Below are positions 39,687-63,071 of a DNA stretch of 64,000 bases, piece by piece. The DNA comes from a virus. Its lineage: Duplodnaviria; Caudoviricetes. Numbering within the stretch: position 1 is the first letter of the stretch; every line of letters begins with the position of its first letter. Location: positions 1 to 64,000 of the IMG/VR virus record IMGVR_UViG_2917791510_000001; one strand, 5' to 3'. The translations under genes were made by a program, and so were the position numbers. Below the pieces are notes generated by a model that did no database searches, was not told the origin of the DNA, and saw nothing but the letters and a program-made list of their open reading frames with translations.

Positions 39687-41756
<2,070 letters not shown>

Positions 41757-42357: not shown

Positions 42358-44559
42358 ATGGTGGACGCGAGGCTGAGGAGCAGGGCGGCCGACAAGCTGC
42401 TGATGCACGCGCGGCTGGTCACCGAGCCGCGCTGGACGCCGCTGCCCCACCAGGTCCCGCCGGAGCCCGGGTTCTACGGCTGGCTGCTCATGGCCGGCCG
42501 TGGCGCCGGGAAGACGGACGCCTGCGCGAGGTACGTCCACGAGCACGTCATGGGGCCGCCGTGCCTGCCCGGCCCGATCCCGCACTGGGTGGGCATCATC
42601 GCTCCGACCCTCGGCGACGCGGCCACGTCCTGCTATGCCGGTCCGTCCGGCCTCCGCGTGCACAGCCCTGAGGCAAAGATGACGACCGTGCAGGGCGGAA
42701 CCGTCATCCGCTGGCCCAACGGCTCCGAGGCCAAGCTGTTCGGCGCGCACTCACCCGAGGACGTGGAACGCCTGCGGTCCGGTGGTAACCGTTGTGCGGC
42801 TGAGGGCACGCTGGTTCGGACTGAGCACGGCGAACGGCCCATTGAGACGATCCGTCCGGGGGACAGGGTGTGGACGCGCAACGGCCTGCGCGAGGTGTTG
42901 CACGTCTGGGACAACGGAGTCAAGGAGGTCCGGCGGTACGACCACGCGGCCGGTTCCACGCAGTTGACCCCGGATCACGAAGTATGGACCGATGAAGGCT
43001 GGATTCCCGTTTCCTCCGTCAAGCCAACGGGAACAGTCTTTACATGGGAAAACACGGAGAATCAGTCAGCTACGACGGCGTCTTATGGCACCCGCGCGAA
43101 GACGGTTATTACCAGAACAAGCACCGTGGCCTGCTGCACCGGCACATGTACACCCGCGAGGTCGGACCGATACCCAACGGGATGCAGGTGCACCACAAGA
43201 ACCACGTCAAGACTGACAACCGGGTCAGCAACTTCGTGCTGTTGCGGCCAGGGGAGCACTGGCAGGAGCACCACGGCGAGCGTGGCGAGGACTGGCACGC
43301 CAAGGGCGGCCGAGCGTCCTGGAAGGACGTCGCAGTCCGAGACTTCACCTGCCAGCGGTGTGGCGAACCCTTCCAGTCCCGCAGCCACCATGGCGTGGTC
43401 CGGTACTGCTCCAATGCCTGCCGTGACTATGGCTCACGACCACGGGAAGAACGGGTGTGCCGCGTGTGCGGCAACACGTTCAAGTGCGCGGTTCGTTCCA
43501 CGTCCAGCACCTGTTCGCGCAAGTGCACTGCGGACTACGTCGCACAGATCAAGCGTTCGCGTGTACGACCTGACGGTGGAGCATGACCACGAGTTCTTCG
43601 CGGACGGCCTGCTCGTCTCCAACTGTGTGAGCTGGTTGGAGGAGCTAGCAGCGTGGCGCTATCTCGATGACACGTGGGATCAGATCCGGTTCGGTCTGCG
43701 CTCCGGGCCGCGCCCGCACTGGGTCGCGTCGACCACGCCGAAGCCCCGGGCTCTGATCAAGAAACTGTCTGCCGGCGGTGTGGACAACGTGGTCATCACC
43801 CGGGCGACGACGTATGACAACCCGCACCTGCCCGAGGACATCCGCGAGGCGCTCGAGGATGCCTACGGCGGGACGCAGATCGGCCGGCAGGAGCTGTACG
43901 CCGAGGTCATCGACCAGGACGAGAACGCCCTGTGGAGCCGGGGAATCATCGACGCGGGCCGGCTGCGCCCGGACGAAGTGCCGCCGCTGGCGCGCAAGTC
44001 CGTCGGCGTGGACCCGTCGGGCGGCCGGGGCGAGCAGGGCATCGTCGTGGTGGGCAAGGCGATGGTGGAGCACCTGCGCACGGTCAACGGACGGGAACGC
44101 ACGGTGCAGCTCGCCCACGGCTACGTCCTCGCCGACCGCACGTGCCATCTCTCCCCGGACGGCTGGGGGCGGCGCGCCGTGCAGGCGGCCGTCGACTACG
44201 AGGCTGACGACATCTGCGTGGAGACCAACTTCGGCGGGGACATGGCGCTGAACACGATCCGCTCGGCGGCCGACTCGATGGGGATCAGCATCCCGATCAA
44301 GAAGGTCACGGCCACTCGGGGGAAGAAGGTCCGCGCGGAGCCGGTAAGCGCCCTGACCGAGCAGGGCCGCTGGCACATGGTCGGCACCTTCCCTGAGCTG
44401 GAGGACCAGATGTGCGAGTGGTACGACGAACTCGACTGGTCGCCCGACCGTTTGGACGCGATGGTGTGGCCGGCCTGGCACCTGCGGATCGTGAAGGCGG
44501 CGATGACCGGGAACACCACGGCGGGCGGGCTCGCGGCAGCGGGCCGTCAGATCGGGTGA
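42358..44559 (+). CDS. terL: Terminase large subunit with intein
   Basis: AGRGAGKT, WLEE Walker B, STTPK, TYDNPHL, VGVDPS, ETNFGG, PDRLDA. Confidence 0.93.
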   Translation: MVDARLRSRAADKLLMHARLVTEPRWTPLPHQVPPEPGFYGWLLMAGRGAGKTDACARYVHEHVMGPPCLPGPIPHWVGIIAPTLGDAATSCYAGPSGLRVHSPEAKMTTVQGGTVIRWPNGSEAKLFGAHSPEDVERLRSGGNRCAAEGTLVRTEHGERPIETIRPGDRVWTRNGLREVLHVWDNGVKEVRRYDHAAGSTQLTPDHEVWTDEGWIPVSSVKPTGTVFTWENTENQSATTASYGTRAKTVITRTSTVACCTGTCTPARSDRYPTGCRCTTRTTSRLTTGSATSCCCGQGSTGRSTTASVARTGTPRAAERPGRTSQSETSPASGVANPSSPAATMAWSGTAPMPAVTMAHDHGKNGCAACAATRSSARFVPRPAPVRASALRTTSHRSSVRVYDLTVEHDHEFFADGLLVSNCVSWLEELAAWRYLDDTWDQIRFGLRSGPRPHWVASTTPKPRALIKKLSAGGVDNVVITRATTYDNPHLPEDIREALEDAYGGTQIGRQELYAEVIDQDENALWSRGIIDAGRLRPDEVPPLARKSVGVDPSGGRGEQGIVVVGKAMVEHLRTVNGRERTVQLAHGYVLADRTCHLSPDGWGRRAVQAAVDYEADDICVETNFGGDMALNTIRSAADSMGISIPIKKVTATRGKKVRAEPVSALTEQGRWHMVGTFPELEDQMCEWYDELDWSPDRLDAMVWPAWHLRIVKAAMTGNTTAGGLAAAGRQIG
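42793..43623 (+). mobile_element. Intein (277 aa) in TerL
   Basis: C1 (CAAEGTLV), block B LTPDHEVW, block F VYDLTVEHDHEFFADG, terminal VSN followed by C+1. Confidence 0.9.
43044..43586 (+). CDS. HNH homing endonuclease with Zn-finger repeats, encoded in an alternative frame inside the TerL intein
   Basis: LHRHMY...GPIP.GMQVHHKN..KTDNRVSN; CQRCG..F..YCSNAC and CRVCG..F..TCSRKC; frame offset from TerL. Confidence 0.88.
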   Translation: MGKHGESVSYDGVLWHPREDGYYQNKHRGLLHRHMYTREVGPIPNGMQVHHKNHVKTDNRVSNFVLLRPGEHWQEHHGERGEDWHAKGGRASWKDVAVRDFTCQRCGEPFQSRSHHGVVRYCSNACRDYGSRPREERVCRVCGNTFKCAVRSTSSTCSRKCTADYVAQIKRSRVRPDGGA

Positions 44560-47048: not shown

Positions 47049-47651
47049 ATGACGACCAAGTGGACTGACCAGCGCCTGGTGCGCTTGGACCGGACGTACG
47101 ACCACGAGCAGGCCAGCGACGGGTTCTCCCGGTTCGGTCAGTATTTGAAGCTGAACGCCAACCTGTTCCGCGATGCCTGGCAGGACGAGCCCGCCCCGGT
47201 CAAGGACCCGGCAGAGTTCGCCGCTCACGCCTGGCGGGTGGCGACCGCGCCTGTGATGGCCCCCGGTTACGTCCGGTGGCGGCCGGACCTGCACGGCGTC
47301 ACTCTGCACCGGGACGACTACGACGGAGCCCTGTACGCCGAGATCCGGGTTCCCCTTCAGCACCACTACCTGCACGTAGGTGACAAGAGGCTTCCGTACA
47401 CCTGGCAGGACTGGGAGCGGGAACGGTACGACGACCCGTTCACGGACCTGGAGGAGCCCCGCGACCCCAAGCGCCCGACCGTCCTGGCGTCGGCGGTCGT
47501 CCGTGTGCCGGGCCGGGAGTGGACCGGGCTGGTCACCCCGTCCGCCTACGAGGGCCGCAGGCTCACCAACGAGGCCATGGAGGCCGTGTCCATCGCGGTG
47601 CAGCACATCAACCGTGACGCAGGTCCGATCGTGGCACGCCTGCTGAGTTGA
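47049..47651 (+). CDS. Hypothetical protein
   Basis: GC3-rich ORF; leaderless start inferred. Confidence 0.7.
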   Translation: MTTKWTDQRLVRLDRTYDHEQASDGFSRFGQYLKLNANLFRDAWQDEPAPVKDPAEFAAHAWRVATAPVMAPGYVRWRPDLHGVTLHRDDYDGALYAEIRVPLQHHYLHVGDKRLPYTWQDWERERYDDPFTDLEEPRDPKRPTVLASAVVRVPGREWTGLVTPSAYEGRRLTNEAMEAVSIAVQHINRDAGPIVARLLS

Positions 47652-62495: not shown

Positions 62496-63071
62496 CTACG
62501 TGGAGCGCGTCCTCCGCTGGCCGCTGCGAATCTTGCTGACCGTGGTGGGGTGGCAACCCAGGCGCGCGGCAATGGCCTTGTTCGTCTCGGGGCTGCTCCG
62601 GATCTCTTGGACAACCTCGTCCGGGATCCAGAATTGCGGAATTTGGGCTCCGTGTGCGGTCCGACCGTGCCGTTCTCGGTCTTCGGCATTCTCCTGCGCG
62701 GTCCCCGCCCGGATGTGAAGCGGGTTGACGCACGGCGGATTTCCACAGCTATGCCGTGTGTGGCCGCCCGGCGGGGGCAACTCGCGTCCGGTGAGGATCA
62801 GTACGGCCCGGCACAAGTACATCTTGTGCCCGTTGATCCTCACCGCGCCGTAACCGCCGTTCCCCGGATGGAACGGGTGCAGGACACACTCGTCAGTCGG
62901 GTGCTCGGCAAGGTGCTTGAGCGTTTCGCGCAGCCATTGCAGGACCGAGCCACGCCAAGGACCGCCCGCCAGGGGGTCCCCGTACTTGTGGTTCCGCGTG
63001 TAGTGCGGTTGGCAGAAGCCCTTGGCGTAGTACGCCCGGGTGCACCCGTTTATCGTGCAAGATCTCCCCAT
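62496..63071 (-). CDS. Free-standing HNH homing endonuclease
   Basis: C.INGC...AKGFC..HY Zn finger; RHSCGNPPCVNPLH..GT..EN; C-terminal HTH; TATAAT 6 nt upstream. Confidence 0.88.
   Translation of the reverse strand: MGRSCTINGCTRAYYAKGFCQPHYTRNHKYGDPLAGGPWRGSVLQWLRETLKHLAEHPTDECVLHPFHPGNGGYGAVRINGHKMYLCRAVLILTGRELPPPGGHTRHSCGNPPCVNPLHIRAGTAQENAEDRERHGRTAHGAQIPQFWIPDEVVQEIRSSPETNKAIAARLGCHPTTVSKIRSGQRRTRST

Follow-up and report, generated by a model that had tools for sequence, protein, structure and literature searches.

Nuclease genes lying out of frame within inteins have recently been described by Gosselin et al. (2025; bioRxiv 10.1101/2025.01.02.630785), who, as far as the accessible parts of the preprint go, found frame-3 genes for endonuclease VII-like nucleases in inteins, together with antisense LAGLIDADG and VSR genes, list HNH nucleases only in frame, propose invasion by a free-standing gene, and include inteins of this kind in terL in the supplement. 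Additionally, phage DNA methylases harbour hidden HNH insertions that are out of frame, the ShiLan domain among them (Arsenault et al., 2025; PMC11855218), and in fractured genes a free-standing endonuclease gene separates the two halves of a split intein (Dassa et al., 2009; PMC2677866). In the terminase gene itself, the mycobacteriophage inteins TerL1-a to TerL1-e splice, and cutting of intein-free terL was demonstrated for two of them (Kelley et al., 2016; PMC5050341). An earlier note on the DNA considered here, made from the letters alone, had suspected that related architectures were already on record, and the frame-3 endonuclease-VII terL inteins of the 2025 preprint bear this out.

The locus analysed here is best read, with a probability of roughly 0.8, as a homing unit of two proteins that would be expressed separately, namely a terL intein predicted to splice and an HNH nuclease, encoded inside it in another frame, predicted to cut. 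The window, meaning the whole stretch of 64,000 nucleotides, makes up the first 64 kb of a virus record 98,815 bases long. Since its intein is matched at 100% and at identical coordinates in NZ_CP041606.1 (plasmid pS1D4-14.2 of the soil isolate Streptomyces sp. S1D4-14), the element in the window is a phage-like plasmid. The terL start codon given in Table 1 is the likely one, with the frame already open further upstream, and a single Terminase_6C match in the 98.8-kb genome marks terL as single-copy. Public records expose an annotation blind spot, in that either the HNH gene or the full terL is missed: the PLSDB/RefSeq gene table (NZ_CP041606 42358-44559, locus L317) holds the HNH gene and a truncated terminase (43576-44559) with no N-terminal part, the full intein-bearing gene being overlooked, and the records of Acinetobacter phage Highwayman and Tetrasphaera phage TJE1, two cultured phages with the same layout in terL, annotate terL alone without the nested HNH gene. 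Upstream of terL, window positions 40522-41589 encode a fused Transglycosylase (Rpf-like), NlpC/P60 and LysM protein that is conserved in loci L002-L004.

Table 1. Features of the terL locus (positions in the window).
Feature	Position	Strand	Basis
terL, terminase large subunit precursor, 733 aa with intein	42358..44559	+	Pfam Terminase_6N and Terminase_6C
Walker A (GRGAGKT) of the N-extein	42496..42516	+	Sequence; kept in homologs
Predicted class-1 intein, 277 aa, Cys1 to Asn277, then Cys+1	42793..43623	+	Motifs, Pfam, Hint fold, intein-free alleles
Intein block B, TPDH	42967..42978	+	Invariant in alignment A2
Hexamer AACAGT resembling a -10 box (TACAGT in the family consensus), 6 nt upstream of the HNH ATG; candidate leaderless promoter	43032..43037	+	Family pattern (putative function)
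Nested HNH endonuclease gene, 180 aa, frame 3 relative to intein (WP_258320940.1)	43044..43586	+	ORF, Pfam
Intein-frame shadow loop (residues 88-237), stop-free, unstructured, drifting	43054..43503	+	pLDDT <50; pN/pS 1.10; 0 stops
HNH catalytic core; H50, H51, N59, N63, H72, H76 invariant	43134..43271	+	Alignment; I-HmuI fold match
Two Cys4 zinc-finger-like repeats of HNH (C103-C126, C139-C161)	43350..43526	+	Eight invariant Cys
Intein blocks F and G plus +1 Cys	43561..43626	+	Motifs, alignment, profile
Walker B-like WLEE of the C-extein, four residues past the splice junction	43633..43644	+	Sequence; kept in intein-free alleles

The reading of the terL insert as an intein with normal splicing blocks stands: blocks A, B (TPDH), F (VYDLTV..H) and G (SN/C) are present, profile searches return Pfam Hint_2 (E 1.4e-9) and TIGR01443 (27.4 bits, cut-off 15.6), and the residues of a class-1 intein are all in place (Cys1, TxxH in block B, Asp and His in block F, a terminal Asn and Cys at +1). 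The penultimate residue is Ser instead of His, which is a known variant. The comparison of terL alleles with and without the intein, proposed in the earlier note, shows that intein-free relatives join GGNR directly to C with a gap of 0 at the junction, placing the insertion just before the Walker B-like WLEE motif. In the AlphaFold model the Hint parts mostly exceed pLDDT 80 and, on this predicted structure, resemble RecA mini-inteins (Mtu RecA intein, E 2e-7, TM 0.8 by target), and the intervening residues 88-237 fall below 50. This middle part is 32% Ser/Thr and, as the earlier note had seen, holds neither an HNH nor a LAGLIDADG motif in the terL frame, so that the in-frame endonuclease of a canonical bifunctional intein is missing between blocks B and F. 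Class-1 protein splicing is predicted because the splicing motifs are present and terL is single-copy. Splicing at the RNA level was considered and rejected; the insert has no Rfam match, and such splicing is not needed because the terL frame is open across the whole intein. Two inteins each occur in the terminases of L018 (P0013) and P0034, whose second inteins are also Ser/Thr-rich in the middle.

The second frame holds, as claimed, an HNH nuclease with two finger repeats, and both frames stay open for 543 nt. The nuclease gene runs from ATG to TGA on the same strand, offset by +2 relative to the intein frame, with its stop codon inside intein block F. A Pfam search assigns its product to HNH_3 (E 3.7e-13) and returns no EndoVII match, which sets it apart from the endonuclease VII-like subtype; a match to a PHROG HNH family spans almost the entire protein. 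The best fold match of the predicted structure is I-HmuI (1u3e; Z 8.1, rmsd 2.2 Å over 72 residues); Foldseek likewise ranks I-HmuI first, at an E-value of only 0.1, and a profile sequence search of the PDB gave no HNH match. The beta-beta-alpha-metal active site is intact by profile, alignment and fold. The two Cys4 repeats, which weakly match YacG/FCS fingers, presumably form a DNA-binding arm. A second HNH gene lies elsewhere in the window (62496-63071, minus strand; 191 aa, weak HNH_3 match), with TATAAT exactly 6 nt before its ATG, an arrangement that has the leaderless geometry described below.

Two compensating sequencing or assembly indels could in principle disguise an ordinary in-frame HNH intein, a kind that does occur in other phages. 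No direct support for such an artefact was found, and the homologs make it vanishingly improbable: every full-length homolog at this terL site has the same frame offset, homologous TerL proteins lack an in-frame HNH motif, and the ten homologous loci first found with intein or HNH queries (34-67% identity), as well as later ones, keep both frames. The checks suggested in the earlier note, for compensating indels and for intein-frame stops, revealed neither among homologs at this site, and three public assemblies, a set that may include the source DNA itself, carry the stretch without indels or gaps. The artefact was rejected on the shared offset of independent homologs and on the gapless assemblies.

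The nested arrangement is real, kept by selection and widespread. About 40 distinct loci with both frames open span 34-69% GC and several terL sites and include cultured phages, and the same frame-3 HNH with fingers is found within Hint domains that unrelated terminases carry at other sites, most often at the C-terminal nuclease Asp. The family-wide spread of nested HNH inteins reaches far past actinophages; a scan of genome contigs found no relative. Searches with the HNH alone also returned DNA methyltransferase genes (L044, L050, L072, L096 and L097) with an HNH nested at the same offset and no Hint domain or intein motifs. Furthermore, the nested HNH genes of L083 and L047 have a long same-frame N-terminal extension and lie inside longer inteins.

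That the layout exceeds chance follows from the family-wide pattern and not from this single copy, in which an open shadow frame is moderately unlikely (P 0.0075 by codon shuffling, 0.08 by synonymous resampling). Across 34 nested loci, which are related and hence not independent, which came in many distant cases from HNH-only searches, and part of which are open by construction because the intein queries that found them require an open frame, the intein frame over the HNH gene holds 0 stops in 6072 codons, against 118 expected by codon shuffling and 120 by synonymous resampling. Among 45 relatives lacking an open frame around the HNH, 333 stops were counted against 325 expected, and none is free of stops.

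The per-frame comparison that the earlier note had called for places the selection on the nuclease. Over the overlap in 11 homologs at this site, the HNH frame retains 59% identity with a pN/pS of 0.55 (0.05/0.25 in the closest pair) and third positions the most variable, against 46% identity and a pN/pS of 1.10 in the intein frame; exteins and the N part of the intein lie at 0.32-0.45. The catalytic His/Asn and all eight Cys of the HNH protein are invariant across the alignment. The HNH frame is under purifying selection and the intein loop drifts. Because selection falls on the HNH frame, the loop is a shadow of the nuclease gene, constrained only to stay open, and it need only avoid stops because splicing would discard it. 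As a natural example of overprinting the locus is a clean one: protein selection acts on one of the two frames, and the other has only to avoid stops.

Sequence signals around its start suggest how the nuclease would be expressed. An ATG or GTG stands at the same position in 21/21 copies at this terL site, formed from the third base of a Thr, Ser or Met codon and the following Trp codon, and ACA makes up 5% of the Thr codons in this genome. Positions -12 to -7 before the start read nAnnnT in 21/21 and TAnnnT in 16/21 of these high-GC copies, a pattern partly fixed by the intein residues themselves, against a TANNNT background of 7/4935 positions (0.14%); the synonymous third positions of the box are A or T in 18/21 and 17/21 copies, where 5.7 and 5.2 are expected. 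A TANNNT motif some 12 bp upstream of the start codon is a mark of leaderless genes (PMC3160421), and about 21% of Streptomyces coelicolor mRNAs are leaderless (PMC4895711). Among the distant members Shine-Dalgarno (SD) pairing takes a larger place, reaching the top 10% in 11/14 of them against 2/18 high-GC members, in a comparison whose hand-picked starts may introduce bias. These statistical signals suggest that the HNH protein is made separately from its own start, probably from a leaderless transcript in most high-GC members and through SD-led translation in most of the distant ones, in line with the earlier note's view of a separate gene inside the intein.

For the present copy the mode of expression is less sure because its box reads AACAGT, a degenerate form missing the first T of TANNNT, and because SD pairing is weak (21st percentile). 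No -35 element is evident near the start in this copy, a sigma-70 consensus scan of the upstream region returned no promoter, and the region has no likeness evident by eye to the late-promoter sites noted in this phage. A hairpin at window positions 42992-43044, ending just before the HNH start, has a z of -2.96; it is not conserved in the high-GC set (mean z -0.45), and a longer 121-nt fold around the start is unremarkable. Hairpins over the SD occur in L039, L041 and L110 (z -2.4 to -2.7), and two other plus-strand genes in the window, at 47049 and 47689, also have leaderless geometry, with TAGCGT and TAGCCT, respectively, 7 nt before the ATG.

The HNH frame is also the -1 frame of terL, open for 16 codons upstream of the ATG in this copy, and a GGGAAA-type heptamer follows the ATG directly in 4/17 homologs, which raises the question of whether a -1 ribosomal frameshift might yield an N-extein/intein/HNH fusion with no start of its own. 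This is very unlikely, since a stop lies just 3-4 codons upstream in five homologs, no canonical slippery heptamer is present in this copy or most homologs, and rare Thr codons preserve the ATG or GTG in 21/21 copies, at a fixed distance from promoter or SD signals. A conserved -1 slippery site was searched for in the homologs and not found.

Separate expression of the nuclease is the reading carried forward, and the distribution of the element suggests that the unit moves. On a quick tree of 83 terL exteins with SH-aLRT support only, 14 alleles carry the intein and 69 have no insert, requiring 11 changes of state, 10 of them forced by strong branches. L013 and L018 are extein sisters (support 100/99; 87% identity) whose HNH proteins are 56% identical, and their pairing is rejected on the HNH tree (p-AU 0.006), itself poorly resolved; L006 and L013, by comparison, have exteins 66% and HNH proteins 76% identical. 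The element is thus distributed like a mobile one, as the earlier note's idea of a mobile unit anticipated, and the nested HNH intein is probably mobile. A patchy, horizontally moving distribution fits homing, and repeated precise loss or general recombination could also give patchiness. A search of the terL flanks for a co-conversion or immunity signal gave three weak columns of 120, unconvincing after multiple testing, and no clear target.

At the same terL site, 208-aa inteins without the catalytic core (L011, P0016, P0020) and mini-inteins of 121-126 aa (P0022, P0031) form a decay series, and in L011 (2001-2624) a 69-codon in-frame deletion removes the HNH core and leaves both frames and the TAGTGT-6-ATG signal in place. 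The core-less and mini-inteins might be taken to mean that both proteins are made and that the HNH no longer homes in this lineage, a decaying passenger whose patchiness stems from precise loss and phage recombination; the degenerate -10 box of this copy would agree with that, as would the failure to find near-identical inteins in divergent exteins and the large synonymous distances. A passenger is nevertheless unlikely, given the purifying selection on the HNH frame, catalytic residues that are invariant over deep divergence, the conflict between HNH and extein trees, and the many precise losses that 10-11 state changes would require.

HNH proteins can also serve packaging, as HK97 gp74 does in assisting terminase cutting. 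Residence within a packaging gene, together with related HNH genes between terL and portal in other phages (L034), would suit a domesticated packaging helper placed in terL for co-expression. Against this highly unlikely role, the insert is absent from 69/83 related terL alleles, the same HNH family is also nested in methylase genes, and the protein, an I-HmuI-like HNH_3 whose finger arm is long, matches the packaging-type HNH of GVE2 weakly in structure (Z 3.5).

The interpretation offered in the earlier note is supported at the level of sequence, none of the computational tests able to refute it having done so. In the homing unit favoured here, ribosomes would read terL straight through the intein, the middle 150 residues looping out of the Hint domain, and class-1 cis-splicing (Cys1, block B His, Asn277, Cys+1) would remove the intein and join the ATPase just before Walker B. 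The HNH protein would be made from its own frame-3 ATG, in most high-GC members probably from a leaderless transcript whose -10 box lies in synonymous intein codons, and in most of the distant members from a start served by a Shine-Dalgarno sequence. During co-residence it would nick or cut intein-free terL near the insertion site, and repair would copy the whole unit; the mobility pattern is observed, and cleavage of intein-free terL and the target are proposed. The unit may have arisen when a free-standing HNH gene invaded an intein, the shadow frame here being kept stop-free so that the intein stays in one piece, and elsewhere the same HNH family would have split the intein.

More broadly, we put at even odds that out-of-frame HNH inteins form a large, stable, cross-phylum class of terminase inteins. 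These would hold a nuclease set free from the late terminase protein and controlled by a promoter or ribosome site of its own, which is encoded within intein codons and suits the host, being leaderless in Actinobacteria and SD-led in other phyla. If so, one HNH family would span free gene, split intein, overprinted intein and mini-intein, rendering a 'splicing first' origin of inteins directly testable, and many inteins annotated as having a degenerate endonuclease would hide active nucleases. Moreover, the presence of the element in a sequenced Streptomyces isolate and in cultured phages makes splicing, start site and cleavage directly accessible to experiment.

Set against known systems, the nuclease shares its catalytic fold and HNH_3 assignment with I-HmuI, the intron-encoded enzyme of phage SPO1. 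The C-terminal arm of I-HmuI consists of NUMOD/HTH modules, whereas here it consists of two Cys4 fingers, and the carrier is an intein and not a group I intron. Like the TerL1-a to TerL1-e inteins (Kelley et al., 2016), the present one is inserted in the ATPase domain, next to Walker B as in TerL1-e; their endonuclease, in contrast, is part of the intein polypeptide. With ShiLan (Arsenault et al., 2025) the locus has in common a same-strand out-of-frame HNH, I-HmuI as best structural match, an open host frame and a proposal of leaderless translation, made here for most high-GC members of the family, but ShiLan has no splicing domain and its loop stays in the host protein, whereas here a complete Hint domain surrounds the nested HNH in an essential gene.

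Fractured genes (Dassa et al., 2009) likewise place the endonuclease as a separate ORF between the N and C parts of an intein, its 3' end overlapping the C part. In fractured genes the host ORF is stopped after the intein N part; here one continuous, predicted cis-splicing intein ORF is read through the nuclease gene. Fractured terL genes with a related HNH between a stopped intein N half and the C half are found in low-GC phages (L031:1560-2790, L033, L036:1000-2250, L045:900-2340), and in antisense orientation in L084; these low-GC HNH genes have their own -10-like box and SD, and in L045 the intein halves are in register with 12 stops between them.

Closest of all are the inteins of Gosselin et al. 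(2025), which, in the accessible parts of that source, share a contiguous class-1 terL intein, a same-strand frame-3 nuclease, an unstructured middle and the same proposed origin, and the intein of phage Vincenzo has the same +2 frame offset. The nuclease here differs in being HNH_3/I-HmuI-like with two Cys4 fingers, and the HNH profile does not hit the nuclease of Vincenzo, whose intein sits at another site. Those parts of the preprint yielded no account of per-frame selection or of start signals, and a search of the PMC open-access and bioRxiv literature returned no report of frame-3 HNH_3 terL inteins. Here a continuous intein ORF carries the endonuclease ORF inside it in another frame, an architecture that, judging from the accessible preprint, has been known since 2025 and that the frame-3 HNH_3 form extends to a different and much wider HNH family.
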